DNA from: Chloroflexota bacterium
Lineage (GTDB): Bacteria > Chloroflexota > UBA11872 > VXNJ01
NCBI GenBank assembly: GCA_026707405.1
Contig: JAPOWW010000004.1
Location: 213,181-277,180, forward strand
DNA length: 64,000 nt
Direction: 5' to 3'
A program made the translations under genes and the position numbers. This document shows positions 10,954 through 31,498 of this stretch, piece after piece. The notes beneath the pieces were generated by a model, which was not told the origin of the DNA, made no database searches, and worked only from the letters and a program-made list of their open reading frames with translations. Numbering within the stretch: the stretch's first letter is position 1; each line of letters opens with the position of its first letter.

Positions 10954-11204
10954 ATCGACCTCAGATCGTCGACCCGGGCGCCGGGCGGTCCTCTTCGGAC
11001 TGCTTTGAGAAGGTGCTCCAGCTGATTGCGCCTTCCCTCCGCAACAATTTCGAGCCGATTGTAAGTCCGGGAGTTTCGCACGTAGCCGACCAGTCCCAGG
11101 CCGTTAGCCTTTCTCATTACGAAATATCGAAAGCCTACTCCCTGCACTCTTCCAATAACGGTTGCGTGAACACTCGACGTTGTGGCTGTTCCCGATTCCC
11201 CCAT
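10902..11204 (-). CDS. acyP: acylphosphatase
   Basis: VIGRVQGVGFRYFVMRKANGLGLVGYVRNSRT...EIVAEG is the acylphosphatase signature. ATG at 11204 lies 4 nt after the ruvB stop (11209-11211). The longer ORF-track start at 11285 would overlap ruvB. Confidence 0.75.
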   Translation of the reverse strand: MGESGTATTSSVHATVIGRVQGVGFRYFVMRKANGLGLVGYVRNSRTYNRLEIVAEGRRNQLEHLLKAVRRGPPGARVDDLRSIWGHARNRYDAFRINAT

Positions 11205-11208
11205 CGGC

Positions 11209-12246
11209 CTAGAGGAGCTTCTTTTGAGCTGTTTGGGCCTCTGGATACTCGATTCCCATATGCTCGTAAGCCAATCGAGTGGCAACTCTACCTCTCGGAG
11301 TGCGGGCTATGAATCCTTGCTGCAGCAAATACGGCTCGTAGTAGTCCTCCAGGGTCACGCCGTCTTCGGCCAGAGTCGCGCCCAGCGTTTGAAGACCTAC
11401 GGGACCTCCATCGAACTTGACAATTATCGCTTCGATGATCTTCCTGTCCATGTCGTCGAGCCCGGTTGAGTCTACGTCGAGGGCCGCGAGCGCGGCTTCG
11501 GCCACTTGCCTGGTGATGCGCCCGTCGGCTTCCACCTCGGCGTAGTCGCGGACCCTGCGCAGCAGGCGGTTGCACACTCTGGCGGTGCCTCGGGACCGGC
11601 GCGCGATTTCCCTCCGCCCGCCCGGGTCGAGATCAACGTCGAGAATGGAAGCTGATCTGCCGACGATCTCCTCACATTCGTCCACGGAGTAGAAATCGAG
11701 CCGGTAAATCGCACCGAACCTGTCCCGCAGCGGCGCGCTGAGGAGACCTACCCTGGTCGTCGCACCGACGAGCGTAAAGGGCGGCAGCGCGATCCGGTAG
11801 CTTCGCGATGCCGAGCCTCTTCCCTGACCGACGACCAGATCGAGCTCGCGGTCTTCCATTGCCGGATAGAGGATCTCCTCCACCGGCTTGCCGAGCCGGT
11901 GAATCTCGTCGATGAATAGAACATCGCCTTCGTTCATGCTGTTAAGCGTGGCGGCCAAGTCTCCCGGCCGGTCCAGGGCGGGGCCGCTGGTGACGCGAAT
12001 GTTGGCGTTCATTTCGCGGGCAACAATGTGGGCTAGCGTCGTCTTACCGAGACCGGGCGGTCCACAGATCAGAATGTGGTCGACCGGCTCACCGCGTTTT
12101 TTTGCGGCCAGCAGCAGAATGCGCAGCCCGGACTTGACCTTGGACTGCCCGATGAATTCACCGTCGGCGAGCGTTCGGGGGCGCAGCGCGGCATCGTGCT
12201 GCCCCTCCAAGGTGGTCCGTTCCGGGGCGACTATCCGTTCGGCCAC
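11209..12246 (-). CDS. ruvB: Holliday junction branch migration ATPase RuvB
   Basis: AAA+ Walker [10 protein letters not shown], Walker [13 protein letters not shown]-terminal winged helix. 345 aa. Confidence 0.95.
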
Positions 12247-12275
12247 AGCAACGCTCGCGACTCTCTATGCAAGTT

Positions 12276-12854
12276 TTACCGTTTAGCCAGCGCGGTCAGC
12301 GCCGCGGATATCTGCTGCTCCACAGTCATGCCCGGTTTAGCGGAGGCCGCCGTCCCTTCCATCGCCTCGGCCCGGGAATAACCCAGCGCCAGCAAAGCCT
12401 CGATAGCCTCATCGGCTCCGTCCGGTATGGCTTGTATTGTGTCGTCGCCCACTAGCTTACCTTTTAGCTCGACGATCAGGCGCTCGGCGGTCCTGGCCCC
12501 AATGCCTGAGACTGATTGAAGGGCCTTGGCGTCGCCGCTGTTGAGCGCGCTTATCAGGCGTCCGGCGGGAAGGGCTGAAAGAACCCGCAGGGCCATTCGC
12601 GGCCCTACTCCGGAGACGGTTTTCAACGCTTCATAGGCGTCGACTTCCGTGCGATTCTCGAAGCCAAACAGCGATGGCCCCTCGTCGCTCGTGTGTATTC
12701 GCGTGTGCAGCGTGACTTCCACGCCCGGCGAAGCATATCGAGTCGCCGCGCCCTCAGTCACAAAGATCCGCAGACCGATACCGAGGCCGCGCGGCTGAAT
12801 CTCCAGCCAGTCCTCGCCCGCCCGGATTACGGTGCCGGTCACCTGGCTTATCAT
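12276..12854 (-). CDS. ruvA: Holliday junction DNA helicase subunit RuvA
   Basis: OB-fold N-terminus (MISQVTGTV...), HhH motifs (LKTVSGVGPRMALRVL; LQSVSGIGARTAERL), C-terminal domain III. Confidence 0.9.
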   Translation of the reverse strand: MISQVTGTVIRAGEDWLEIQPRGLGIGLRIFVTEGAATRYASPGVEVTLHTRIHTSDEGPSLFGFENRTEVDAYEALKTVSGVGPRMALRVLSALPAGRLISALNSGDAKALQSVSGIGARTAERLIVELKGKLVGDDTIQAIPDGADEAIEALLALGYSRAEAMEGTAASAKPGMTVEQQISAALTALAKR

Positions 12855-12912
12855 CGCCTACCTCTGACTCGACAAACCGAAGAAACCGCTAGTCTCGACA
12901 ATCGCGAGGGAC

Positions 12913-13410
12913 TCATCTACGCGAAGCCGCGAGCCTCAATCCAAGCCGATGATTGTGTATGTGGCAAATTGCGGCTGCAAGCGCGTCCGCGGCGTGATGC
13001 GGCTCCGGCGCGTTCCGCAATCCGAGAATGATCTTGACCATCTCCTGGACCCGGAGTTTATCGGCATTACCGGCTCCGGTGACCGCGTTCTTGATCTGCG
13101 GTGGCGAGTATTCGGCGACCGGAATGCCGCGCCGCGCGGCGCAGAGCATCACGACGCCGCCGGCCTGCGCAACCGAGGTGGCCGTGGATGTGTTCCGCCC
13201 GAAAACCGTCTGCTCGATGGCGACGTCGGTGACCGGGTGAGAATCGAGCACCCGTACTATGCCGTCGTGAAGCTCTAAGAGACGTTGCGGTGTGCTGTCA
13301 CGGGCGTATGTGTCCAGGCACCCGTATTCGACCAGGACCGGATCGGTTTCTCCTGCAACAAGACCGAATCCGAGGTTTGCGAGGCCTGGGTCCACTCCCA
13401 GGGTAAGCAT
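12913..13410 (-). CDS. ruvC: crossover junction endodeoxyribonuclease RuvC
   Basis: MLTLGVDPGLANLGFGLV (catalytic Asp block) ...VAIEQTVFGRN...KNAVTGAGNADK, typical of RuvC. 165 aa. Confidence 0.9.
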   Translation of the reverse strand: MLTLGVDPGLANLGFGLVAGETDPVLVEYGCLDTYARDSTPQRLLELHDGIVRVLDSHPVTDVAIEQTVFGRNTSTATSVAQAGGVVMLCAARRGIPVAEYSPPQIKNAVTGAGNADKLRVQEMVKIILGLRNAPEPHHAADALAAAICHIHNHRLGLRLAASRR

Positions 13411-13413
13411 GGC

Positions 13414-14169
13414 TCAGGCGGCCGCGTAGGTGGCTACGAGGTCTTCGGTGATATTCAGGTTTGTATCTACTTTGCGGACGTCGTCCAGCTCTTCGAGACT
13501 GGAAACAAGCCTCAGCACTTGCAAAGCGCCGCGCTCCTCTGCGTCCACCGGACTCGACGCGACTCGTCCCAACTCGGCCTGGTCGATCTCGAGTCCCTCG
13601 TTGACCAGCTTCTTGCGCACCTCGTCAAGCATATGGGGCTTGGTCCAGACGTAGACCAGCGAGTCGTCGATCTCAACGTCGTCGGCGCCCGATTCGGCGG
13701 CGATCATGAATATATCGTCCGGGTCGGCGCCGTTAGCCTTTACCACGATTTCGCCGCGTCGCTCGAACATCCAGGCGACGCTTCCGGAGCCGGCCATGTG
13801 ACCGCCGGACGTTTCGAGTACGTTGCGAATCTGCGCCACGGACCGGTTGCGGTTGTCGGTCAATACGTCGATAAAGAGCGCGATGCCGCCGGGGCCGTAA
13901 CCTTCGTAAGCAAGATCGAACATTTCGGGCGCGCCCTTGTCTTCGCCGACGCCGCGCTTGATGGCCTTTTCGATGTTTGCGCTGGGCATGTTGGCCGCTT
14001 TGGCCCGCTGCACGGCCAGCCGGAGCCGGTAATTGGAGTCCCGGTCAGCGCCGCCCAGCCGCGCCGCGATCATGATCTCTTGGGACAGCTTGGAGAAAGC
14101 GCGTCCGCGTTTGGCGTCGGCCGCGGCCTTTTGACGCTTGATGGTGGACCATTTCGAGTGACCAGACAT
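13414..14169 (-). CDS. yebC: YebC/PmpR-family probable transcriptional regulatory protein
   Basis: MSGHSKWSTIKRQKAAADAKRG...is the hallmark YebC N-terminus. Precedes ruvC-ruvA-ruvB, the conserved arrangement. Confidence 0.9.
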   Translation of the reverse strand: MSGHSKWSTIKRQKAAADAKRGRAFSKLSQEIMIAARLGGADRDSNYRLRLAVQRAKAANMPSANIEKAIKRGVGEDKGAPEMFDLAYEGYGPGGIALFIDVLTDNRNRSVAQIRNVLETSGGHMAGSGSVAWMFERRGEIVVKANGADPDDIFMIAAESGADDVEIDDSLVYVWTKPHMLDEVRKKLVNEGLEIDQAELGRVASSPVDAEERGALQVLRLVSSLEELDDVRKVDTNLNITEDLVATYAAA

Positions 14170-14293
14170 CTGACTTCGTCTACCGCCCTTGATATCCTTG
14201 AGTTGATATCCGATTTTGAGATTCTACTTTAGCGAGGCATGCTCCAAATGTGCGGGAGTCTTTCGCGAGCGCGCGTAGAACAATTGGGATTCC

Positions 14294-14791
14294 ATGGACT
14301 CTAGCGATTTCATACCCCTGCTTCTAACGGCGATAGCGGGCTTCTTTATCGCCATGATGTTCTCGAAAATCTGGGTGCCTTTCGCCAAGCCGCCTCCCGG
14401 TGTGGAAGTTCACTCGACCAAGCTCGGATTTCTTCAGAAAGTCATGGTCCATCGCTGGCATCTGCTGATCGTGCTCGGGCTCGCGAATCTGGGGAGCATC
14501 CCCGGCATCGAGGTCCCCGGCATACCTGCTAATGCGCTGGTGCTGATAATCCTCTTCGTGATTCTGATAGTCGTGCTGCCGACCCGATACAGGTTCACAG
14601 CTGAGGGCTTTGCGCTGGGACGGGGACGGATAATGCCCTGGAAGGACTTCAAGCGCTATCGCTTGGGGCCGGGACGCATCCAGTTCGAGACCAAGGGCGA
14701 GAATCCCAAGCGAGTGGATATTTTCGTAACTAACGTTCAGCAGCAGGCGCTGCGGCCCGTAATCAAGCGCTATTTCCGGGCTGGGCCTTAG
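14294..14791 (+). CDS. small membrane protein (two TM helices, basic PH-like C-terminal tail), unknown function
   Basis: Two clear hydrophobic helices and a Lys/Arg-rich C-terminus. Balanced coding composition, unlike the Arg-rich antisense ORF 14324..15286. Stop overlaps the rarA stop on the opposite strand. Confidence 0.5.
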   Translation: MDSSDFIPLLLTAIAGFFIAMMFSKIWVPFAKPPPGVEVHSTKLGFLQKVMVHRWHLLIVLGLANLGSIPGIEVPGIPANALVLIILFVILIVVLPTRYRFTAEGFALGRGRIMPWKDFKRYRLGPGRIQFETKGENPKRVDIFVTNVQQQALRPVIKRYFRAGP

Positions 14792-16122
14792 TCCGAATCG
14801 GAGTCGGTTCCGCTTACGCTTCGTAGCCGCTTCGTGATCTCGACTTCGTATCCACTTGAAGACGGCGCGTAAAAGCGGACACCCTTCAGAGACTCGGGCG
14901 TGTAGTCCTGTTCGACGAAGTGACCGGGATAGTCGTGTGCGTATTTGTAGCCTTGCCCGTAGCCCAGCGCCCTGGCGCCTGAGAACGCCTCGTTTCGGAG
15001 ATGGAGCGGGACCGTCAGATCGGCGCCCGCATCTATAGCGGCGCGGGCGGCTTGCAAGGCTTTTCCAGCGGAGTTGCTCTTGGGCGCGGTCGCCAGATAG
15101 ATGGTCGCCTGGGCCAGCGCGTAAGTCGCCTCCGGCAGACCCAGCCGTTCGACTGCCTGATATGCGGCGAGCGCCACCGATATGGCCCGCGGATCGGCGT
15201 TTCCTACGTCTTCGGAAGCCAGGATGAGTAGCCGTCGGGCTATGAATTCCGGCTGCTCGCCGGCGTGCAGCATCTTTGCCAGCCATAGCACGCTCGCGTC
15301 GGGGTCCGAACCGCGGAGGCTTTTGATGAAGGCCGAAATCGTGTCGTAGTGCTCGTCGGCCTTACGGTCGTAGCGGACGTGTCGAACCAAAACCGATCGT
15401 TCTACCGTGTCCAACTCGATGGTTTCGACACATTCGTCGATTGCAAGCTCCGCAGCCGCGTCGAGCCAGTTGAGGGCGATCCGCGCGTCGCCCCCGGAAC
15501 GGTCGGATATGAACCGTTTGGCGTCTCCGGATATCTCCAGCCCCAAGCCGCCAAGTCCCCGATCGGCGTCCGAAAGCGCCCGCTCCAGGATTCGCTCGAT
15601 CAGGTCCTGGGAGAGCGGGTTCAATCTGAGGACGCGAACCCGGCTGAGCAGCGGCGCAATGACCTCGAAATAGGGATTTTCGGTAGTGGCTCCCCAAAAC
15701 ACCACAGTCCCGTCTTCAACATAGGGAAGCAGCGCGTCCTGCTGGGACTTGCTGAAACGGTGCACTTCGTCCACGAACAGCAGGGTGTTCCGCTGATGCA
15801 GCTTGAACTCGTCTTGCGCCGACCTGGCCGCCGCCTTGATGTCCGCCACCCCGGCGGTCACGGCGCTGAGGGCTATGAAACGGCTCTCGGTAGCCGCCGC
15901 GGCCAGCGTCGCCAGGGTTGTCTTGCCGCTGCCCGGCGGTCCCCACAAGAGCGCCGACCATAGACGGTCGCGTTCGAGAGAGACCCAGAGCGGTCGACCG
16001 GGGTCCAGTAAGTGTTCTTGTCCCGCGAATTCGTCGAGCGATTCGGGACGCATCCGCGCGGCGAGCGGCGTCGATTTGAGTCTTGCATCGGCCGACGCGT
16101 GATCGAACAGATCGGGATTCAA
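14788..16122 (-). CDS. rarA: replication-associated recombination protein A (MgsA/RarA AAA+ ATPase)
   Basis: Walker A GPPGSGKTT, Walker B LLFVDEVHRF, MgsA helical lid and C-terminal domain. 444 aa. Confidence 0.9.
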   Translation of the reverse strand: MNPDLFDHASADARLKSTPLAARMRPESLDEFAGQEHLLDPGRPLWVSLERDRLWSALLWGPPGSGKTTLATLAAAATESRFIALSAVTAGVADIKAAARSAQDEFKLHQRNTLLFVDEVHRFSKSQQDALLPYVEDGTVVFWGATTENPYFEVIAPLLSRVRVLRLNPLSQDLIERILERALSDADRGLGGLGLEISGDAKRFISDRSGGDARIALNWLDAAAELAIDECVETIELDTVERSVLVRHVRYDRKADEHYDTISAFIKSLRGSDPDASVLWLAKMLHAGEQPEFIARRLLILASEDVGNADPRAISVALAAYQAVERLGLPEATYALAQATIYLATAPKSNSAGKALQAARAAIDAGADLTVPLHLRNEAFSGARALGYGQGYKYAHDYPGHFVEQDYTPESLKGVRFYAPSSSGYEVEITKRLRSVSGTDSDSD

Positions 16123-17717
16123 AGGAGCGCCCGCAAGAACTCCCTGATCCGGTCTCCGTTGCCGCGCGCGCCCTCGACCAATTCGTCATCGACCGGACCG
16201 CGCCTGTACCTTGCGTGGACGAACGCCTGTGTCAGCTCGGTGACGTCGGAGGCGTTCGACTCGCAGGCTTCCAGGAGATTCCGCTGGTACTCGATGGCGG
16301 TCTGGTTCGGGCTTCGCGCTATACCTGATCGCTCCGCCTCGCGCAGCGTGTTCAGGTAGATTCGCAGAATGCGCTCGCGGTTTGACAGCGCTTCAGCCGC
16401 CAGACCTCCCGAGAAAACCGAGGCTTTGCGGATACCCATCGCGTTCATTCCCCAGGCGGCCGCCTGTTCGCCTACCAACCTCAAAGCTTCGCCCGAAAGC
16501 TGTAGCAGCGAGGCCAGTCCGAGCAGGATGGACTTGAGGACTGCACCCAGCCCGGTCAGCACGATACTGAGCAGCTTGCCGATCTTCCATTGAGGGCGGG
16601 CGCTTGTGACACGTTTGTAGATGAGGAAGGCGGTGAAAGCCAGCACGGCCCACATAATCGCCGCCTGCAAAGACAGAAGAGCTGAGCCGTCGCTACCGGC
16701 GACCTCTGATACTGGTTGCGCGGCGGGGGCTTCAGGCACCGAGGAACCGCTGAATTGCAGCAGTGAAATCAGCTTGCCGAGCAGCGCGATCACCGCCACA
16801 AACGGAAGCATCAGGATCTGCCAGGCGACGAATACGACTTTGACCAGACCCGCCCAGAAGCCTTGGGCGTTCGGTATTTGGAAGCCGGGAATGAAAAGCG
16901 CGATCAGCAGCGCGAATCCGAGAACGAACAGGCTTGAACGGACCCAGTTTTCGGTGATCCCGGAAGCCTGCCGGGCGAGCTGCATCGACCAGGTGGAGGT
17001 CTGCCGGACGAGGTTTGCGTAGCTGTGCAGCACCAGCAACCCTATGAAATAGAACACGAGGATGGTCAGCGGAGCGGCCGGCGATACCACGGGCAAGTCG
17101 CCGCGCATTATCCCGCCGGCGGTCACCGCGGTAGTTGCTGTAAGGATCCCCCCTCCCGCGAATCCAACGGCCGTAATCTTGCCGACCGCGGCCTTTCGGT
17201 CGATCCAGCGCGCGCTGCTGGTCATCCAGCCGTAGTACTCAGGCGAGTTCACCGACGGAGGTATCTCGCTCTGCTGAGGATGGAGCTGCTCGATGTTGCG
17301 GGCCAGGAATGCGGCCGCCTGCCAGATAACGGCCAGGATCACGATCATGAGTATTGTCGACGTGTCCATGATTGCGAAGAACGATCCGATGAACCAGCCG
17401 TCTCGCTCGAAGTCGACGCCGGAGCCGCCCTGAACGATCCCAAGTCCGCGCAGGACCAAGAGCGAAGGAACGGCGAAAACGAGCCAGTCTTTCCATCCCG
17501 GTTTGTCGCCGCGCGCGCCCTGTCCCCGCATGAAGATGAAGAGACTTACGAGGAAGTTGCTCAACATCAGAGCGAAGGCCAGCCACGATTGCTGTGACGA
17601 GACACCGATTGCCATGAAGCCGAAGCCTAGGCCCAGCGCCAGCGTGCCAAAGCAAACCGACGCCAGCGACGCCAGGATCAGCCTGCTATATGGCCGCTCG
17701 ACCGTCTCGCCAGACAT
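16119..17717 (-). CDS. polytopic membrane protein with C-terminal DUF4129-like domain (MoxR/DUF58-associated)
   Basis: About 12 predicted TM segments. C-terminal soluble tail (...IEYQRNLLEAC...LTQAFVHARYRRGPVDDELVEGARG...) resembles DUF4129, the protein usually encoded after MoxR+DUF58. Overlaps rarA by 4 nt and DUF58 by 32 nt. Confidence 0.55.
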   Translation of the reverse strand: MSGETVERPYSRLILASLASVCFGTLALGLGFGFMAIGVSSQQSWLAFALMLSNFLVSLFIFMRGQGARGDKPGWKDWLVFAVPSLLVLRGLGIVQGGSGVDFERDGWFIGSFFAIMDTSTILMIVILAVIWQAAAFLARNIEQLHPQQSEIPPSVNSPEYYGWMTSSARWIDRKAAVGKITAVGFAGGGILTATTAVTAGGIMRGDLPVVSPAAPLTILVFYFIGLLVLHSYANLVRQTSTWSMQLARQASGITENWVRSSLFVLGFALLIALFIPGFQIPNAQGFWAGLVKVVFVAWQILMLPFVAVIALLGKLISLLQFSGSSVPEAPAAQPVSEVAGSDGSALLSLQAAIMWAVLAFTAFLIYKRVTSARPQWKIGKLLSIVLTGLGAVLKSILLGLASLLQLSGEALRLVGEQAAAWGMNAMGIRKASVFSGGLAAEALSNRERILRIYLNTLREAERSGIARSPNQTAIEYQRNLLEACESNASDVTELTQAFVHARYRRGPVDDELVEGARGNGDRIREFLRALL

Positions 17718-18924
17718 TCATTCCCTCCCGTCCCGCGACCGCGTGCGCTTCTATGCCCGCCGCGGCGGCGAGCGCCTTAGATTTCGAAGCGCCGAGCGCG
17801 TCGGTGAAGACCGCCGTGACATTGTGCCCCGCTTTCTTTCTGTCGAGAAGCGACCGTATTAGCTCGGCGTTACCGTTGCCGGTCACCACTATTAGCGTCG
17901 AGCCCCACGAGAGCCTGAGCGAGCCGGCGCGTAGCTCGTCTCCTATGGCTTCGCCTTCGAGCAAGCCGACTCTGGCCAGCAGGGCCAGAATCTCCATGAG
18001 ATGCTTGCGGCCCTTACCCACCGGCACCCGCGGCCGCCGTGAACCGCGGATCCTGCGCGCGCGCTCAGCCGGTATCGCCCGGCCGCCCACCATCACCCTG
18101 TCGAGACCATTGACGATCACGCCGACGGACTGCCTGTCTGATATCAAGGCGGAAGCGAGCGACGCGGCCACGACTATGCCGAGTTCGCTGGAGAAGCTGA
18201 CCCACTCCCTGGAATAGCCGCTAGGGTTAAGGTCGACGAAGATCGTCACTTCGTGACTTACCGCCGGTTCAAGCTGCCTAACGTGAATGATCCCCGTTCG
18301 GGCCGAGACCTTCCAGTTGATCATCCTCGGGCTGTCCGAAGGCTTGTATTCCCGGCAGCCAATCACTCTGGACGGATCCTCGTAGAGAATCTTCGGCGTC
18401 TTAATCGTGCCAAACGGCGTGGTCGAAGGCAGCCCCAGTTTGTCGAGCGGCACGATTTCCGGATAGACGATCACGTTTACGGGCCGGTCGAGACCGACCT
18501 GACGCTGCGCGAAGCCGAAAACGTCTCCGTACCGGGCCTCGAGCGGCCCGACGGGGTGGTAGCCCCGTCGGTTGCCGGACAGTTCATAGTCAATATCCAC
18601 ACTCGAACGCGGCTTGATGGCGATCACCCGGCGCATCACTTCGTAAGTCGCGAGCTCGTGCGGGAGCGTTTCGCGAACGTTGAGCCAGGGAATGGGCAAG
18701 AAGCTCCTGTTTTGCAGCGAAATCGTGACCGGGATCTTCTCCCCCAGAAATGCCCTGCCAGGCAGCTTCCTGCTGAGGCGGAGTCCGCGGCCGATGCTCC
18801 AGATCCAGAGCTTGCTCGCGGCGAAGATTCCAACGATTACGTAAACGAGTACGAAGAAGATGCCGAAGCCTGTTATGAGTCCCGCGGCGAGTAGCAGAGC
18901 CGCCGACACGAGGATGCCGGCCAC
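17686..18924 (-). CDS. DUF58 domain protein (vWA-like, MoxR-associated)
   Basis: Two N-terminal TM helices followed by a DUF58/vWA-like region (VTIFVDLNPSGYS...). Located 3 nt downstream of the MoxR ATPase gene. Confidence 0.7.
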   Translation of the reverse strand: MAGILVSAALLLAAGLITGFGIFFVLVYVIVGIFAASKLWIWSIGRGLRLSRKLPGRAFLGEKIPVTISLQNRSFLPIPWLNVRETLPHELATYEVMRRVIAIKPRSSVDIDYELSGNRRGYHPVGPLEARYGDVFGFAQRQVGLDRPVNVIVYPEIVPLDKLGLPSTTPFGTIKTPKILYEDPSRVIGCREYKPSDSPRMINWKVSARTGIIHVRQLEPAVSHEVTIFVDLNPSGYSREWVSFSSELGIVVAASLASALISDRQSVGVIVNGLDRVMVGGRAIPAERARRIRGSRRPRVPVGKGRKHLMEILALLARVGLLEGEAIGDELRAGSLRLSWGSTLIVVTGNGNAELIRSLLDRKKAGHNVTAVFTDALGASKSKALAAAAGIEAHAVAGREGMNVWRDGRAAI

Positions 18925-18927
18925 GGG

Positions 18928-19938
18928 CTATGACGCCAGTACTACTTCGGTGTCGGCGAGCACGGCGCCGGTTATGTCCTCGGCGGAGAATCCCCTGAGC
19001 GCGCTCTCCGGATCGACGAGGATGCGGTGCGTCAAAACGTCTGCGGCGACTTCCTTTACGTCGTCGGGCAGAACGTAGTCCCGCCCGCGAATTGCCGCAA
19101 GAGCCTGCGACGCCGCGAACAGCGCGAGCGACCCCCTGGTACTTGATCCGAGAGCCACGTTGGGATGATTCCGCGTCGACCGCGTTAGCGCCAGGATGTA
19201 GTCGGCAACCGTGTCGTCTACGTGAACCTGCCCGACGTCATTCTGCAATTCAGCCAGCAGACTCGTGTCCGTTACGGCGCCAATCGAATGGACCGGATGC
19301 CCGGAGACTTGATCGTAGAGAATGCGCTTCTCCTCATCGGTCGTGGGGTAACCGAGACTCAGCTTCATGAAAAACCGGTCTAACTGCGCTTCCGGAAGCG
19401 GGAAGGTGCCTTCGTATTCGACGGGGTTTTGCGTGGCCACCACGAGGAAAGGCTTGGGGAGTGCGTAGGTGACGCCGTCAGCCGATACCTGATTTTCCCC
19501 CATGCACTCGAGCATCGCCGACTGCGTTCTGGGTGTGGCGCGGTTGATTTCGTCGGCCAGCAAGACGTTGGCGAATACGGGACCTTCCTTGAATTCGAAC
19601 TCGGACGACTTGCTGTTGAAAACAGAGACTCCGGTTACGTCGTTGGGCAACAGGTCGGGAGTGAACTGAATGCGTTTGAACGTGCCGCCCAGCGAAATTG
19701 CGAGCGCCCGCGCGAGCATGGTCTTGCCTGTGCCGGGCAAGTCCTCCAGGAGCACGTGGCCCCGGCATATAAGGGCGACGATGATCTTCTCGATCTCCGC
19801 CTGCTTGCCGACTATTACTCTGCCGATGTTTTCGCTGACTTTTTTGGAAAAGTCTACGTAGGCGGACTGATCCAGGCGCTGCCCCCAAATCCGGTCGATG
19901 CGATTACCGGTCCGGTCGCTCCCCAGCGTCACTTGCAC
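18928..19938 (-). CDS. MoxR-family AAA+ ATPase
   Basis: VIVGKQAEIEKIIVALICRGHVLLEDLPGTGKTMLARA (Walker A), [19 protein letters not shown] (Walker B / sensor), AAA lid. GTG start. Confidence 0.9.
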   Translation of the reverse strand: MQVTLGSDRTGNRIDRIWGQRLDQSAYVDFSKKVSENIGRVIVGKQAEIEKIIVALICRGHVLLEDLPGTGKTMLARALAISLGGTFKRIQFTPDLLPNDVTGVSVFNSKSSEFEFKEGPVFANVLLADEINRATPRTQSAMLECMGENQVSADGVTYALPKPFLVVATQNPVEYEGTFPLPEAQLDRFFMKLSLGYPTTDEEKRILYDQVSGHPVHSIGAVTDTSLLAELQNDVGQVHVDDTVADYILALTRSTRNHPNVALGSSTRGSLALFAASQALAAIRGRDYVLPDDVKEVAADVLTHRILVDPESALRGFSAEDITGAVLADTEVVLAS

Positions 19939-20082
19939 GGTTGGGGCAAGCGAATATTAACAACCATCCGGATTCGCGCATCCCATGTCGTGAAGTAAAG
20001 GGCGCAAACTTGAGTAAGGCCATAGCTTGAAATAGCCTGTTCCTGCACTTGGCGGTGTAGAGACCGCCTGTACTGGTTAGAG

Positions 20083-21162
20083 ATGGACATGCCAGCGACG
20101 AATTTGCGCATACCTGGACCGACCCGGCTTCCCGAAGAAATTCTTATCGAATGCTCCCGGCAGATGATCAATCATCGGGGGCCCGACTTCGGTCGCCTGC
20201 TCCGAGAGATAACCGACAGCGCTCGCGAGTTTTTCGGCACGCGCGGCGACGTTTTCCTTCTCGGAAGTTCGGGTACGGGCGCTATGGAGGCGTCGATCGT
20301 TAATTTCTTTTCTCCCGGCGACCGTGTCCTGGCCATCGTGGGCGGAGTTTTTGCCGACCGTACCCGAGCGCTGGCGGAGGCCTTCGGTCTGCAGGTCGAG
20401 GTGCTTAAGGTTGAGCTTGGCGAGGCCGTCGACCCGGAGGAAGTGAAGACATGGCTCGACTCCGGCGAATACCGCGGAGTGTTCCTCACGCAAAACGAGA
20501 CATCGACCGGCGTGACGAACGACGTTAAAGGCGTGGGGGAGGCGAAAGGGAGCCGGGACCTGTTGTTCATCGTGGACGGCGTCAGCTCCGTCGGGGCGAT
20601 TCCGCTGGAAATGGACACCTGGCGCGTGGACGTGGCGTTCACGGCATCCCAAAAAGCCCTGATGGCGCCGCCTGGGGCGGCGCTGCTGGCGGTGACCGAG
20701 CGCGCCTGGCGATTTGGCCGTGAAGCGGCCTGCCCGCGTTTCTATTTCGATCTGCGTTCGATAAGTGATGCGCTCGATCAGGGGCAATATCCCTGGACGC
20801 CGCCTCTGCCTGTCTGCTTTGCTTTGCGGGCCGCGATGGAGCGCCTGGCGTCAGCCGGGCTTGAGAGCGTGTTTGACCGTCATCGCCAATATGGCGAGTT
20901 TGTGCGTGAGCGGATTGTCGCGGCGGGTCTGGAGTTGTTTGCATCGAACGGTTCAGCGTCGAATACCGTCACCGCCGTGCGGTTTCCCGATGGCGCCGAT
21001 TCCGCGGCCTTCATGGCCCGCGCACAACGTGAGCACGACACGATCTTCGGTGGAGGCGAGGGTGAGCTTCGAGGCCGCATATTCCGCATCGGACACATGG
21101 GGCTGATCGACCTCCAACCGCTTGCCGACGCCGTCGACGTCGCGGCGCGGCTGCTGAAGTGA
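20083..21162 (+). CDS. class V aminotransferase (alanine-glyoxylate / serine-pyruvate aminotransferase family)
   Basis: PLP-fold with FTASQKALMAPPGAA (Schiff-base Lys block of AGXT-family enzymes). 359 aa. Confidence 0.8.
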   Translation: MDMPATNLRIPGPTRLPEEILIECSRQMINHRGPDFGRLLREITDSAREFFGTRGDVFLLGSSGTGAMEASIVNFFSPGDRVLAIVGGVFADRTRALAEAFGLQVEVLKVELGEAVDPEEVKTWLDSGEYRGVFLTQNETSTGVTNDVKGVGEAKGSRDLLFIVDGVSSVGAIPLEMDTWRVDVAFTASQKALMAPPGAALLAVTERAWRFGREAACPRFYFDLRSISDALDQGQYPWTPPLPVCFALRAAMERLASAGLESVFDRHRQYGEFVRERIVAAGLELFASNGSASNTVTAVRFPDGADSAAFMARAQREHDTIFGGGEGELRGRIFRIGHMGLIDLQPLADAVDVAARLLK

Positions 21163-21914
21163 TGGCTGTGTCTTCCGCGAAAGCATCGGCAAACCGGCTG
21201 CGGGAAATGCTTCAAGCGTCGGCCACGCCCGAGAGGGCGGCCGGCGAGGCGAAGTATCTCAAGCTGAAGGACCGCGAGAACCTTGGCGTCGACGCCCCAT
21301 CTATTCACAAGATCGCTCTGGAATATGTTGGAGAGTTTGGGCTGCCCAGGGATTTGAGCGTGATCGACGGCTGGTTCTGGGCCAGCCTGGAAGAGGCGAC
21401 CTGCGCCATCAAGTTCATGTCGGGTCAGCCCTCATTTACGGCGGCTACGTGGGCGGTAGTGGAAGGGTGGTGCGCGACTCCAGACACGTGGGCGCTGGCC
21501 GATCCGATATCGATGGTCCTTACGGCCGGCCATCTGGAGGAGGGCGTGATCTCCGAGGAAACGCTGCGCGAGTGGAGCTTGCGCGAAGAACCGTTCTGGT
21601 TTCGCCGGATCGCGCTCGTCACCACGACCACGCTCAACGGGGGTTTAAGCAAGCTGGCCCGCGCACGGATGGGAAGGCTGGGACGCGTGCCAGATATCGG
21701 TAGCGTTCCACGCCCCCGGCTTACGCTCGATCTGCTCGAAGCGAGCATTCACGATAAGCGCCACTTCATCCGGCTCGGAATCGGCTGGGCGTTGCGCATT
21801 CTGGCCGACGTCGCCCCTGACGAAACGGCGGAGTTCGTATCGACGCATAGGGCGAGAATCACGAAAGCGATGCTGACTAAAGCCCGGCTGGGCGAAGATG
21901 GCCGCCGTCTGTAG
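21159..21914 (+). CDS. DNA alkylation repair enzyme (AlkD/AlkC-like HEAT-repeat glycosylase family)
   Basis: AEKYLKLKDRENLGVDAPSIHKIA...EPFWFRRIALVTT... pattern as in pfam08713 proteins. ATGA overlap with the preceding aminotransferase stop. Confidence 0.55.
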   Translation: MMAVSSAKASANRLREMLQASATPERAAGEAKYLKLKDRENLGVDAPSIHKIALEYVGEFGLPRDLSVIDGWFWASLEEATCAIKFMSGQPSFTAATWAVVEGWCATPDTWALADPISMVLTAGHLEEGVISEETLREWSLREEPFWFRRIALVTTTTLNGGLSKLARARMGRLGRVPDIGSVPRPRLTLDLLEASIHDKRHFIRLGIGWALRILADVAPDETAEFVSTHRARITKAMLTKARLGEDGRRL

Positions 21915-23271: not shown

Positions 23272-23805
23272 CTAGGCCTTGATGCCCTGCTTGCTCTCCA
23301 TCTCAAGCAGCCTTCGCTTCAGATCAATACCGGCGGCGTAGCCTCCAACCTCCCCATTTGCCGATACGACTCGATGGCACGGAACGAATACGAGTGCGGG
23401 GTTGGAGCCGAGCGCCGCGCCCGCCGCGCGGGCGTATTTTCGTGCCGGATATCCAGCCGACTGCGCCACCCAACCGTAGGTCCGCGTCTCGCCCTTGGGA
23501 ATGAGTTGACAGGCCCGCCAGATTTTCCTTTGGAAGTCCGTTCCCTCCAGATCGAGGCCAGGCGTACTTCCGGCCGCGCCGGCAAGCCGTTCCCGCAATA
23601 GCTCGAGCCACGGTCGGGCGGGTTGGGCATCGATTGCCCGCCGTCCCGGCAGGCTCGCCTGTAGCGCTGCCGCTGCTTCGGCCGCGCTCGACTGCCCGAT
23701 TGTGGAGGCGATCAAACGTCCCGAACGCGCGGCTACGCCGCACCATCCCCAGCCATCGACTTTGTCTACGGCGATATGGTCCAAGTCCGTGATCGATTCG
23801 ACCAC
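23272..23805 (-). CDS. ogt: methylated-DNA--protein-cysteine methyltransferase
   Basis: Active-site PCHRVV plus the helix-turn-helix DNA-binding block (TYGWVAQSAGYPARKYARAAGAALGSNPALVFVPCHRVV). GTG start 2 nt after the upstream MoxR stop. Confidence 0.85.
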   Translation of the reverse strand: MVESITDLDHIAVDKVDGWGWCGVAARSGRLIASTIGQSSAAEAAAALQASLPGRRAIDAQPARPWLELLRERLAGAAGSTPGLDLEGTDFQRKIWRACQLIPKGETRTYGWVAQSAGYPARKYARAAGAALGSNPALVFVPCHRVVSANGEVGGYAAGIDLKRRLLEMESKQGIKA

Positions 23806-23807
23806 GA

Positions 23808-24755
23808 TCAGGCGGCCGTTGCCCCGGGAACCGCAATCGTGTCCAGGATTTCCTGGACCACGTCGCGCGTATCGACATTGCGTATTCGGGCCGCCGGACT
23901 AACTATCAGTCGATGCGCCAGCGTTGGCACGCACAGATGCTTTACGTCGTCTGGAATTACGTAGTCGCGTCCCCGGAAGCTGGCCAGGACTTGAGCGCCT
24001 CTGAACAGGGCCAGGCTGCCCCGGGTACTCGCTCCGAGATATATCTCCCGATGGTCTCGCGTGGCGCGCACGAGGTCCACGATGTATTCCCGCAGGACCG
24101 CGTCGACGTATATGTCTTTGATCTCTTCCTGTATTTGCAGCAGGTCCTCAATCCCGATCACCTGCTCCAACTCTTCGATCGGCTGCGTATGTAAGTGAGC
24201 CTCTATGACCTCAAGCTCGTCGGCGCGGCTCGTGTATCCCATGCTGATGCGCATAAAGAAGCGGTCAAGCTGCGACTCCGGCAGCGGGTAGGTCCCCTCA
24301 TATTCGATGGGGTTCTGAGTTGCCATAACCAGGAAGGGTTCCGGCAAGTTGTAAGTCACTCCGTCGACCGTGACCTGCTGCTCCTCCATCGCTTCGAGAA
24401 GCGAGGACTGGGTCTTGGGCGTGGCCCGATTGATCTCGTCCGCCAGAACGATCTGGGCCATTATCGGCCCCGGTCGAAACTCAAATTCAAGCGTTTTCTG
24501 GTTGAAGATCGAAACTCCGGAAACATCGCTAGGCAGGATGTCAGGCGTGAACTGGACGCGCTTGAAGGTGCACCCTATGGATTGGGATATAGCTTTTGCC
24601 AGGGTGGTCTTGCCGACGCCCGGAACGTCCTCGATAAGGACGTGTCCTCGAGCGACGAGGGCGACCAGTACCAGTTCTACCACGTCGGGCTTTCCCAGAA
24701 TGACTTTCTCTACGTTTTCACTGACTCTTCGTGCGATGTTGCGAATGTCTTGCAT
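23808..24755 (-). CDS. MoxR-family AAA+ ATPase (second paralog)
   Basis: [57 protein letters not shown]. About 60-65% identical to the MoxR at 18928-19938 over the ATPase core. ATG at 24755 ([11 protein letters not shown]...) preferred over the ORF-track start at 24794. Confidence 0.9.
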
Positions 24756-24895
24756 AACTTCCCCCGGACATCGAAATGGAGAACGATAGGTCAACTAGCT
24801 CGTTTGGCTGCGCGCATTCTAACTGTTTCTAAGGCGACGTTCGCCAATCGCCTTTGACAGCGTCCGTCTGGAGGTCTAGTCTCGAATCCCGCAGC

Positions 24896-24968
24896 GCGGG
24901 TATGGTTCAATGGCAGAACGCAACCTTCCCAAGGTTGAAATGCGGGTTCGATTCCCGCTACCCGCTCC
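24896..24968 (+). tRNA. tRNA-Gly (anticodon CCC)
   Basis: Cloverleaf by eye: acceptor GCGGGTA/TACCCGC, D-stem GTTC/GAAC, anticodon stem CAACC/GGTTG with loop TTCCCAA, T-arm GCGGG-TTCGATT-CCCGC, discriminator T then CC. Confidence 0.85.
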
Positions 24969-24993: not shown

Positions 24994-27390
24994 CTATTCG
25001 GCTCTCTTCGGCAATACGAACTGCCTGAGCGATTCGGTTCCCAGCACGAGCAATCTGCCGTCCAGCTCGCTTATCCAAAGCGCCCGAATGTCGGAAAAGA
25101 AGTTGTCGGCGCCGCGATAGATGAACTGGCGCACGAACCGCCCTTCATTGCCGTCGCGCTTGTCGATTTCGACGATGCGGTTGTTGCCGTCGTCGACCAC
25201 GTAAAGGCTCTCCGCGGTGGTATCCGTGTACACGCGGGTGGCTTTGGTGATCGGGCGGTCCAGCCCGCTGATCTGAAACCGCAATTTCTTGCCGCCCCGG
25301 TACCGCTCGATCGTGTTGTCGGACAGGAGCACGAAAATGTCGCCGTCTATAGCCATGTCTATGGCGGTGCTGATGTCGACGTCCTCCGACGGATCGAAGT
25401 AGTCGATAGGGTCGACTTCGTACCCATTGGCGGTCGGCTGGTATTTGTGAATTCGATTGGCGGCGGGGTCCAGGATGTACATGTTGTTGTTGAAGTTGTC
25501 GACCGCGACCGGGAGTTTCCATTGTTCGGTTCCGCTGACCCTTAACAGCTGCGGGGAGCGATCGGGGACGATGCTGTACACGTTGAATTCGCTGTCAATC
25601 ACCAGCAGACTCAACTCGCGCGCGACCATGCCGATGATGTTCGTGACGGCGGCTTGACCGACCTGCTCTCCTTCACGGAGCACGACAGAGCCGCGTTTAG
25701 CCGCGCGATATTCGATCAGCCTCTTATCGACGGCGTCGATTACGTACTGGACGTCCTGTCTAACTTCGAGCTGGGGAACAATCCTTGCTATACCGACCCC
25801 AGTGTCGTTGAACTCATCGATCGTGGCGCTCGTAACGAGGCGATAGACCTGGTTAAGACGGTCTTGCTCGGCCTGTATCTGTGCGAGAAGACGGTTAACT
25901 TCACCTTCGTTGTAGCCCGCGTCGATCGCCTGGTTGGCCGCGTCGATCGCATCCTGCAACCCTGCCAGAGCGGGGACTCTTTCTCTTTCTCGCACTGCCG
26001 CGTCGAAATAGCGTTTCGCCTCGGCGAATGAGTTTGCGGCGCTCCCCAGCGGCGCGGTTTGCTCAGGTTCGGCCCTCGTTTCGACCTGTCTTTCTGACTG
26101 CGGCGTTTGATTCGTTGCGACGCTGGGCGATTCGTCTCTTCGAATCGCCAGTATCAGTAGTACGGCGACGAGGGCTACTACCGAAAAGAGCAGGAGTATC
26201 GAGCCCGTCCCAAAGCGTGACCGCGAGCGGCCTCCGGAGGCCAGTGAATCACGACCGCCGAACAGCGACATGAAGACTCCTCGAACTCCGCCCCTTCCGG
26301 GATCGTCCACATCGGGCCACGGTTTGAGCACGGTATCTCGTTTCGATTCCATTACCTGTCTGTTCAGTTCGTCCAACTCTTCAGGCCCGCCGGCTATCGC
26401 CTGCCGCCGCCGCTCGTAGTCGGTCATGGGCGGACTATCGAATCCCGTCTGTCTGGCATATGGGGATGATTCGGAGGTGTCTTGCGGTCGTGACGCGAAG
26501 ACTCTGACGATGCCTTTCAAGGCCATCACCGGCAGCACAAGGACTAGCAGCAACATGCCTATTACGAATTCGCCGATCTTCGCTGCGGCGCCTTTGGAAG
26601 GACGCCCCGCCGCCGTTGCGCCCGCCTGGGCGGTGCGCCAGTCAGGTTCCAGACCGGCTGCGCGGCCTTCCGGCGCGACCGGCGGCCTGGGCCGCGTAGT
26701 GGTTTGCCGCGGCGGGCGTGCGGCTGGGCGATCGAACGCCTCCGGCACTGCAGCGGATTCCGGCTTCAGGATGAGCACGTCGCAATCGACGGCGCCGCGT
26801 TGCGCGGCCAACGCGGCTATCTGGTACGCGGAGTCTTCGGGCGGGTAGCGGACCAGAAGCCCGCGGATTTCCCTTTCGTGCAGAACACCGGCCACAACCG
26901 AGGAAGTCAGGACGATCAAGTCGCTTTCCGTCAGGTCCGCCCGGAGGATCTCTATTTCCTTGTCAAACGGCAGGCCGTCGTCAGGGGTCGTAATGTCGGT
27001 TCCCGGTTCGGGGCGCGCGTTAAGCCGGTTATCCCGAAAAATGAAGAGCTGCGTCGGTGGAAGCTGGGCTATGAACAAATCCTTGCCGCGTACCACAACG
27101 CCAGTGCTTCCCAGATCGAGCCGCTCTTCGTTGGGACGGGCCGCCGCTGCCGCCGCGCTCGAGCCAGCCCTCATGCATCGCATCAGACTGGATATCGCGC
27201 TACTGGTGTCGCCGGAGTAGTAGGCGCGGACGGCGGCGTCGGCGAAATGCGAGCACAGCCGCTCGTTTCCGCCCTCCAGCACAAGATATAGGTGGCCGGC
27301 CGATCCGCCGACCGGCGGGTCGGCGATTCTTATTCTCGAGCTTGCCAGTCCGGGCTGGCCGTGAAGAAAGCTAGCCTGTGCGAATTCCAA
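24994..27390 (-). CDS. membrane protein: N-terminal cytoplasmic PP2C-like (probably catalytically degenerate) domain, two TM helices, C-terminal NHL-repeat beta-propeller
   Basis: N-terminal region parallels PP2C blocks (LVLEGGNE vs ADGMGG; GSTGVVVRGKDLFIAQLPPTQLFIFRDNRL vs GTTAV...GDSRAYLLRDGEL; LIVLTSSVV vs LLCSDGL) with metal-ligand positions substituted. TM helices FVIGMLLLVLVLPVMAL and ILLLFSVVALVAVLLILAI. C-terminal repeats YVVDDGNNRIVEIDK and MYILDPAANRIHKY are NHL-like. Confidence 0.5.
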   Translation of the reverse strand: MEFAQASFLHGQPGLASSRIRIADPPVGGSAGHLYLVLEGGNERLCSHFADAAVRAYYSGDTSSAISSLMRCMRAGSSAAAAAARPNEERLDLGSTGVVVRGKDLFIAQLPPTQLFIFRDNRLNARPEPGTDITTPDDGLPFDKEIEILRADLTESDLIVLTSSVVAGVLHEREIRGLLVRYPPEDSAYQIAALAAQRGAVDCDVLILKPESAAVPEAFDRPAARPPRQTTTRPRPPVAPEGRAAGLEPDWRTAQAGATAAGRPSKGAAAKIGEFVIGMLLLVLVLPVMALKGIVRVFASRPQDTSESSPYARQTGFDSPPMTDYERRRQAIAGGPEELDELNRQVMESKRDTVLKPWPDVDDPGRGGVRGVFMSLFGGRDSLASGGRSRSRFGTGSILLLFSVVALVAVLLILAIRRDESPSVATNQTPQSERQVETRAEPEQTAPLGSAANSFAEAKRYFDAAVRERERVPALAGLQDAIDAANQAIDAGYNEGEVNRLLAQIQAEQDRLNQVYRLVTSATIDEFNDTGVGIARIVPQLEVRQDVQYVIDAVDKRLIEYRAAKRGSVVLREGEQVGQAAVTNIIGMVARELSLLVIDSEFNVYSIVPDRSPQLLRVSGTEQWKLPVAVDNFNNNMYILDPAANRIHKYQPTANGYEVDPIDYFDPSEDVDISTAIDMAIDGDIFVLLSDNTIERYRGGKKLRFQISGLDRPITKATRVYTDTTAESLYVVDDGNNRIVEIDKRDGNEGRFVRQFIYRGADNFFSDIRALWISELDGRLLVLGTESLRQFVLPKRAE

Positions 27391-30867: not shown

Positions 30868-31498
30868 GAAATGAGAAATCCTGTTCACGATACGACCGTG
30901 AGCGGTGATAATAGGGAGACGCTCGACGCCGCTCGGTATGTCACGCGGGTTGCGTTCCAACATTTCTAATCGGGGAGCTTGGCTGGTGGCGGTATCGGCC
31001 GCATAGGCTGTTAACGTCGGCCGCGGGCACCCACCTGGTAGATCCAGGGGACGAATTTCAGTGGCAGCCGGCGGCCGTGGAGCGTCGCCTCGCTATGCTG
31101 AACAGCGTCTGTCTCTCAGCTTCGCGTGGAGACCGTTTCGGAGCGCACCGGGCGCCGGTGCGCTCAACACTTTGATGGGCTCTATGGCTTCGTCCGCGAC
31201 GCGGCGGAAAACCGGACAGATCGGCTCGGCGTATTCATAACCAAACAGTCCTGGTCTGTTGTGGGGACTAACACGTGCCGTTACTTTGTCGTTGCCATTG
31301 GGCTGTCCGGCCCAATACTCAAACAAACGTTCGTAAGACGTAATCGGTGTGATAACGTTCGCAGCGCCGAGTTTCGCGTCGAGAGAAAGCCGGGTAATTC
31401 CTTTCGGCGTTCTCGCGGCGGGCTTCGGAATCAGCTCACCGGCTGCTGACAACCGGCTCGGCAGTCGCTGGCATTGCGCTTCGAGAAGAGATGCCCCA

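Follow-up and report, generated by a model that had tools for sequence, protein, structure and literature searches.

The window analysed here is a 64,000-nucleotide (nt) stretch of DNA from a Chloroflexota bacterium (assembly GCA_026707405.1, contig JAPOWW010000004.1, positions 213,181-277,180 of the forward strand), and all coordinates below are those of the window unless another locus is named. On its minus strand, a gene for replication-associated recombination protein A (rarA) follows directly upon three genes encoding a MoxR-family AAA+ ATPase (moxR), a DUF58 protein and a membrane protein with a DUF4129 domain, which we refer to together as the module. A first-pass annotation had described the four as a tight operon and had suggested that rarA is translationally coupled to the module and that RarA may have a membrane-associated, chaperone-linked role. 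Its coordinates for the four open reading frames (ORFs) matched our ORF map exactly, and the map, together with a reading of the junctions, bore out the tight co-directional arrangement. The four genes are a well-delimited co-directional block, laid out with its boundaries as follows.

19939-20082, no strand: divergent intergenic region of 144 bp between moxR and a class-V aminotransferase gene, presumed to hold the operon promoter (ORF map, sequence).
18928-19938, minus strand: moxR, MoxR-family AAA+ ATPase, 336 amino acids (aa) (Pfam AAA_3 and AAA_lid_2, PDB 2R44, Walker motifs).
17686-18924, minus strand: DUF58 gene, 412 aa (Pfam DUF58, hydropathy, motif search).
17686-17717, minus strand: dual-coding stretch of 32 nt, read both as the end of the DUF58 gene and as the beginning of the DUF4129 gene (sequence).
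16119-17717, minus strand: polytopic membrane protein with a C-terminal DUF4129 domain, 532 aa (Pfam, hydropathy, AlphaFold).
16119-16122, minus strand: TTGA stop/start overlap of the DUF4129 gene and rarA, a likely termination-reinitiation site (sequence, overlap in 12 of 12 relatives).
14788-16122, minus strand: rarA, canonical replication-associated recombination protein A, 444 aa, TTG start (Pfam, match to PDB 3PVS, Walker motifs).
14294-14791, plus strand: mem165, a convergent membrane ORF of 165 aa that bounds the operon (ORF map, sequence).

Beyond the 144-bp gap upstream of moxR lie the divergent aminotransferase gene and then an AlkD-like DNA-alkylation repair gene; at the opposite end, mem165 and rarA overlap by 4 nt at their 3' ends, and yebC-ruvC-ruvA-ruvB follow past mem165 on the minus strand. 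The start of moxR may be either GTG 19938 or GTG 19932, 6 nt apart; two public gene calls differ accordingly, at 336 and 334 aa. Its stop is separated by 3 nt from the GTG start of the DUF58 gene, whose own stop (17686) overlaps the DUF4129 ATG (17717) by 32 nt, with a GGAGG Shine-Dalgarno sequence 6 nt 5' of the ATG. The 32-nt overlap is also called in three of the loci used for comparison (L009, L014 and L025; these loci are numbered with an L throughout), and the N-terminus of the DUF4129 protein, MSGETxERP, is invariant in alignment A2.

At the junction between the DUF4129 gene and rarA, the 4-nt overlap of the first-pass annotation was present, but not of the ATGA type it had given: the sequence reads cTTTGAa, so the overlap is TTGA and rarA begins with TTG. 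We take the TTG at 16122 to be the correct rarA start because no other start codon lies ahead of the N-terminal segment DLFxH...PLAARMRP, which is kept in every relative compared. The ENA gene call (444 aa, TTG 16122) agrees with the homologues; the NCBI call begins at an internal ATG at 16053, leaving 421 aa and losing the conserved N-terminus, and the locus is therefore useful for annotation, since the TTG start restores what that call cuts off. No well-spaced Shine-Dalgarno sequence precedes the TTG in the window. The rarA Shine-Dalgarno is likewise weak or badly spaced in most lineages, with a good one (AAGGAG at 5 nt) in L021 only. A TTG start together with the lack of a well-spaced Shine-Dalgarno would fit reinitiation at rarA by ribosomes that have just terminated.

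The arrangement was then followed through 12 related loci, which comprise every full-length relative of the DUF4129 gene placed in genomic context, with RarA identities of 51-96%; a metagenome scan with a 6-sequence alignment gave four loci. All 12 share both the order moxR-DUF58-DUF4129-rarA and an overlap between the DUF4129 stop and the rarA start, as does L027, and the adjacency is thus not a peculiarity of this genome; uniqueness to this genome, which the first-pass annotation had named as a refutation, was not borne out. In five other GTDB Chloroflexota species, whose DUF4129 proteins are 62-95% identical to that of the window, the whole 11-gene neighbourhood is kept, which shows only lineage synteny. 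The four-gene order is also kept in L009/L022, L020 and L021, where DUF4129 is 29-35% and RarA 51-57% identical, as well as in L014/L025 (RarA 67% identical) and L027 (RarA 60%). The flanks are variable: upstream there is a divergent aminotransferase gene, a co-directional htrA or rsfS, and downstream mem165, a thiamine pyrophosphate (TPP) enzyme gene or other genes. With the four-gene order constant while both flanks vary, the four genes seem to evolve as a unit in this clade. The DUF4129 protein itself evolves fast, at 62% identity where RarA is at 71%, and a protein of identical sequence to that of the window is present on contigs of the Chloroflexota metagenome-assembled genome GCA_034428555.1.

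In L027 (ERZ21829470 contig_37), moxR, the DUF4129 gene, the quinolinate phosphoribosyltransferase (QRPTase) gene and the TPP enzyme gene each appear as two ORFs, more likely through frameshift errors of a long-read assembly than as real pseudogenes. The convergent mem165 is present in L004-L008, L014/L025, L019, L020 and L021, is absent from L009, L027 and three loci without the module, and had no Pfam or NCBIfam family match.

The geometry of the rarA junction is better kept than its letters. The overlap is of the form NTGA in seven of the 12 loci, with TTG, GTG or ATG as the start codon, of the form ATGACTGA/ATGACTAA in four, and 17 nt long in the remaining one. Its retention in all 12 makes co-transcription and translational coupling reasonable, and on this reading of the junctions the moxR-DUF58-DUF4129-rarA genes are probably both co-transcribed and translationally coupled. 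To that extent the coupling proposed for rarA stands; the functional tie to the membrane module that had been attached to it is not supported, as set out below. A programmed frameshift at CTC-CTT-TGA that would fuse the DUF4129 protein to RarA was considered and rejected, as nothing but a -1 shift reaches the frame of rarA, a slippery heptamer is lacking, and relatives differ in their junction sequence (GTGA, ATGA, ATGACTGA).

A rival account of the same junction is that the adjacency is purely historical: rarA would be served by a promoter of its own within the last part of the DUF4129 gene, the overlap reflecting genome compaction and nothing else. Public gene calls show how compact the locus is, with seven of 17 same-strand junctions overlapping and 12 of 17 at 15 nt or less. 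These close junctions include ones between genes of unrelated function, for instance acylphosphatase/FecR-like, ACPS/YjeF and DNA-alkylation repair/aminotransferase, and 4-nt overlaps also occur at two convergent pairs. With overlaps at seven of 17 junctions, a 4-nt overlap is normal in such a genome and no evidence of shared function. What makes independent expression of rarA unlikely is, first, that initiation at a TTG without a well-spaced Shine-Dalgarno should be inefficient and, second, that the overlap geometry has been kept while the start codon shifted among TTG, GTG and ATG. A scan for consensus sigma-70 promoters over 14000-20300 returned no promoter-like site where 2.0 were expected, which counts only weakly against a promoter of rarA's own; a terminator scan of the block gave two terminator-like sites against 5.5 expected from shuffles, and with both counts at or below the shuffle expectation the scans are uninformative.

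The historical account also draws on those relatives in which module and rarA come apart. In L016, L017/L018 and L026, with RarA about 60% identical to that of the window, moxR-DUF58-DUF4129 is cleanly absent. L016 retains the surrounding block (bpMoxR-ogt, QRPTase, htrA, rarA, yebC-ruvCAB, ACPS, YjeF and recX), and L017/L018 and L026 retain the part upstream of rarA, with different genes downstream. The rarA gene of L016, L017 and L026 follows htrA after 63-102 nt, and it must therefore be expressible without the module. In neighbour-joining trees of RarA, of HtrA and of their concatenation, the module-less lineages form no supported group and the backbone is unresolved, which limits the claim to at least one gain or loss event of the module genes. 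Of the two, loss is the favoured one, since a module close to rarA is present in L010 as well, which belongs to the outgroup clade.

Further afield, the two were not found together. Six MoxR-DUF58 modules from outside the clade (L013, the Roseiflexaceae locus L023, L024, Thermomicrobium roseum, Bacillus and Nonomuraea) have no rarA within 8 kb, and none of 13 rarA loci from Cyanobacteriota, Actinomycetota, Pseudomonadota, Bacteroidota, Bacillota and Fusobacteriota has MoxR or DUF58 within 6 kb. The literature searched reports no MoxR-RarA link.

Nor does the RarA protein bear a mark of its neighbours. It matches MgsA_C (2e-66), AAA_assoc_2 (3.8e-21), AAA (3.8e-13) and RuvB_N (1.5e-11) in Pfam and no extra domain; residues 18-442 align to residues 14-440 of E. 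coli RarA/MgsA (PDB 3PVS) at 4.3e-112, and Walker A (GPPGSGKT, residue 61) and Walker B (LLFVDE, residue 114) motifs are in place. The window RarA is canonical. Work on the B. subtilis and E. coli proteins describes RarA as a tetramer that binds the C-terminus of SSB and has a DNA-dependent ATPase activity (PMC6101539, PMC5389604). In the alignment of RarA proteins, no column is fixed in the module-linked copies and yet different in the module-less ones. An operon-specialised RarA paralogue was rejected on the same grounds, the RarA of L016 also lying at the orthologous position.

Three observations on RarA fusions stand beside these results. The L010 protein (11154-13409 of that locus, 751 aa) is fused to a C-terminal methyltransferase-like domain, the best NCBIfam scores of the window RarA are to models of RarA fusions of about 730 aa (PRK13341 series), and RarA copies on Nostoc plasmids are annotated as 'RarA/unknown domain fusion protein'.

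Taken together, these comparisons bear on the membrane-associated or chaperone-linked role that had been suggested for RarA. In its fuller form, this idea would have RarA work together with the membrane module or come under its control, for example by being tethered or remodelled at the membrane, or, in a variant, would have the module act on membrane-attached replication or repair complexes. The overlap kept in all 12 loci despite variable flanks speaks for such a partnership; so does the case of L010, which belongs to another RarA clade and still has rarA 1.5 kb from a module, and so do the surroundings of the window block, which are rich in DNA-repair genes (AlkD-like, ruvCAB, recX), with a second MoxR gene directly preceding ogt. 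We nevertheless regard functional coupling as very doubtful, and the suggested role was not upheld: related genomes keep rarA in place without the module, the six outside modules lack rarA and the 13 loci from other phyla lack the module, RarA has neither an extra domain nor a module-specific residue, no MoxR-RarA link has been reported, and overlaps between unrelated genes are common at this locus.

A further possibility centres on htrA. A co-directional trypsin-PDZ (HtrA) gene lies upstream of the module in L009, L014, L020, L022, L025 and L027, and, as described above, upstream of rarA in the module-less L016, L017 and L026. Sinorhizobium meliloti has a degQ that overlaps rarA by 4 nt, and E. 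coli has lolA-rarA. One may thus imagine a stress regulon in which htrA, the MoxR module and rarA are co-regulated, for example by heat or oxidative stress, such that envelope quality control and the rescue of stalled forks are linked in timing rather than by physical contact. This seems quite unlikely to us, as htrA is absent from the position upstream of moxR both in the window clade and in L021 and as HtrA neighbours rarA in only one of the 13 loci from other phyla. No HtrA homologue was found anywhere in the 64-kb window.

The module proteins were characterized individually. MoxR matches Pfam AAA_3 (5e-63) and AAA_lid_2 (7.9e-23) and PDB 2R44 (7.1e-75), its P-loop (PGTGKT) and Walker B motif (VLLADE) are both intact, and the gene for a DUF58 partner adjoins it, 3 nt past its stop. 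Matches to other MoxR subfamilies were weak: 3.6e-07 for bpMoxR (PF20030), and 24 bits against a cutoff of 681 for the NCBIfam RavA model. The DUF58 protein has a hydrophobic N-terminal anchor by hydropathy (residues 1-45), followed by a vWA-like DUF58 domain (Pfam DUF58, PF01882, at 4.4e-15 over residues 190-273, scoring 55.9 bits where the cutoff is 23.4). A motif search of this protein found neither DxSxS nor Dx[ST]x[ST], the signatures of the metal ion-dependent adhesion site (MIDAS); the corresponding strand end reads VDLNPSGYS.

For the 532-aa membrane protein, Pfam gives DUF4129 (PF13559) at 9.5e-13 and 48.5 bits, against a cutoff of 24.8, over residues 454-518. The first-pass count of 12 transmembrane segments was not reproduced: Kyte-Doolittle hydropathy gives 9-10 hydrophobic spans, and a low-confidence AlphaFold model places about 10-11 long helices ahead of the C-terminal domain. 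That model, computed from a 9-sequence alignment, has a mean predicted local distance difference test score (pLDDT) of 51 and a predicted template modelling score (pTM) of 0.28; its confident part is the DUF4129 domain only, with pLDDT of 79-89 in ten-residue blocks over about residues 451-530. The model thus predicts a C-terminal helical DUF4129 domain at about residues 445-531. DUF4129 typically accompanies transglutaminase-like proteins, according to its Pfam family description. A hidden transglutaminase-like core was nonetheless rejected for this protein: Pfam at E values up to 5 gave DUF4129 only, in the window protein and in five homologues, and a PDB sequence search with the window protein gave no match. 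A tblastn search of the protein against plasmids also gave no match. The family of about 530 aa to which it belongs numbers 728 representatives at E values of 1e-30 or below in an exhaustive profile search, as compared with 13-15 homologues from word-indexed protein searches, and one representative is labelled Anaerolineales. The literature searched holds almost nothing on DUF4129.

From this evidence we consider it probable, though well short of assured, that the link is one of position and expression, by which a housekeeping rarA is tied to a peptidase-less MoxR-DUF58-DUF4129 membrane module and has been inherited vertically with it in one Chloroflexota clade. The four-gene block would be one compact transcription unit served by the moxR promoter. 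The module would consist of a membrane-anchored assembly in which the DUF58 protein serves the MoxR AAA+ ATPase as a vWA-like adaptor and the polytopic protein is the membrane partner, its DUF4129 domain facing the cytoplasm; it might remodel or help to degrade membrane-proximal proteins. Transcription would reach rarA by read-through from the moxR promoter, and its translation would be carried mainly by ribosomes that end at the DUF4129 stop and reinitiate at the overlapping TTG, GTG or ATG. The tie between rarA and the module would then be shared expression at most, and neither a physical nor a mechanistic partnership. Speculatively, HtrA could supply the proteolysis for the module, although htrA also persists where the module is missing.

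Several points weigh against a link limited to position and expression. The rarA junction has been kept even where both flanks of the block have changed, and L010, from a distant RarA clade (93% bootstrap), has rarA, there the methyltransferase fusion, 1.5 kb downstream of a module amid unrelated flanks; together these exceed what is expected of a purely accidental juxtaposition. The second MoxR paralogue of the window also precedes a DNA-repair gene (ogt) within 2 nt, so that both window MoxR genes sit upstream of a DNA-repair gene. A rarA promoter inside the DUF4129 gene may exist, as the promoter scan is silent on it, and the genomic context covers the nearest relatives of a DUF4129 family of 728 representatives. 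The boldest reading of these points is that MoxR-type modules of this Chloroflexota lineage are wired to genome maintenance, with a membrane-anchored chaperone or protease system controlling or localising repair factors, or that the block is an operon connecting envelope stress to replication stress. We hold either to be highly improbable; if one of them were true, RarA would be placed close to the membrane, a setting in which it is not known from model bacteria.

RarA is among the most conserved and yet least understood DNA-repair ATPases, and the MoxR-DUF58-DUF4129 modules, though common, have not been assigned a function, so if the two were truly linked, each would gain a setting in which to test its role. 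As a positional and expression-level link, the block amounts to an operon variant of one clade of uncultured Chloroflexota, in which rarA is probably expressed by reinitiation behind a membrane-protein gene, and is not evidence for a new RarA function. It offers a natural test case for translational coupling, and a minor lead is that rarA turns up repeatedly behind genes related to the envelope (htrA/degQ, lolA).

Some other features of the neighbourhood may be recorded here. The second MoxR paralogue (23808-24755, minus strand, within 23272-24794; AAA_3 4.5e-65, bpMoxR 4.7e-11) is followed after 2 nt by the Ogt/MGMT-type gene (23272-23805, minus strand; DNA_binding_1 4.4e-29), and this pair recurs in L009, L016, L018 and L026. 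An ORF of 798 aa (24994-27390, minus strand) had no Pfam or PADLOC match and measures 787-806 aa in L009, L016 and L026; between it and the second moxR, on the opposite strand, lies a tRNA-Gly(ccc) gene (24896-24968). A match to 6S RNA (SsrS) at 30918-31087 on the plus strand reaches 48.5 bits, just above the Rfam gathering score of 46.4. The segment 11209-23805, with a downstream block as in L001, is unusually rich in repair genes: ogt, the AlkD-like DNA_alkylation gene (21159-21914), rarA and yebC-ruvC-ruvA-ruvB, to which recX adds a few kb beyond.

Among known systems, rarA is often a tail gene behind envelope or proteolysis genes, a pattern for which our 13 loci are too few to judge against chance. 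In E. coli K-12 (ftsK-lolA-rarA-serS), rarA similarly stands towards the tail of a co-directional string, 10 nt past the envelope chaperone gene lolA, and its product is 46% identical to the window RarA; the genes upstream of it, however, are unrelated to MoxR, DUF58 or DUF4129, and there is a short gap instead of an overlap. The 4-nt overlap of degQ and rarA in S. meliloti (L034, 4601-7305), degQ being of the HtrA family, mirrors the htrA-rarA pairs of the module-less Chloroflexota but comes without a MoxR module, and the degQ-rarA pair was not seen in the Microvirga or Novosphingobium loci. An NlpC/P60 gene precedes rarA in Enterococcus raffinosus, and in Tsukamurella tyrosinosolvens (L030, 1372-7272) genes for a circularly permuted ATP-grasp protein, a transglutaminase-family protein and a hypothetical protein are followed by rarA and then by alaS-ruvX, which again puts a transglutaminase-related system ahead of rarA.

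With respect to MoxR, the pairing of the ATPase with a vWA-type partner is shared with RavA-ViaA and with the MoxR-vWA-beta-propeller ternary conflict systems (Kaur et al. 2020, PMC7159879); the window has no beta-propeller, effector, kinase or FHA partner among the neighbouring genes. An anti-phage or conflict system was accordingly rejected, PADLOC giving just a P-loop-level match to TRIP13 at 1e-4 and beta-propeller and effector partners being absent.

A close parallel from a cultured relative of Chloroflexota is that of Thermomicrobium roseum DSM 5159 (TRD_RS12235-12245), which has MoxR, DUF58 and DUF4129 genes in the same order and with overlapping junctions (MoxR 53% and DUF58 31% identical to those of the window), but no rarA after the module; a convergent aminotransferase gene comes next. 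The arrangement as a whole recalls the three-gene operon of MoxR, vWA and YebA-like transglutaminase-like (TGL) proteins (see also Snider & Houry 2006). That operon has been proposed to form a membrane-proximal, ATP-dependent protein degradation system, in which substrates are brought in by the vWA protein, unfolded by MoxR and cut by the transglutaminase-like domain (Zhang & Aravind 2012, PMC3495828). The window likewise has MoxR, then a vWA-like (DUF58) protein and then a polytopic membrane protein. Its third protein, unlike the YebA-like one, is without a TGL core and has about 10-11 predicted helices rather than 8, its DUF58 protein lacks a canonical MIDAS, and rarA is appended with a stop/start overlap. 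Judged by its sequence, then, the window module is a variant of the MoxR-vWA-YebA/transglutaminase operon that lacks the peptidase domain.

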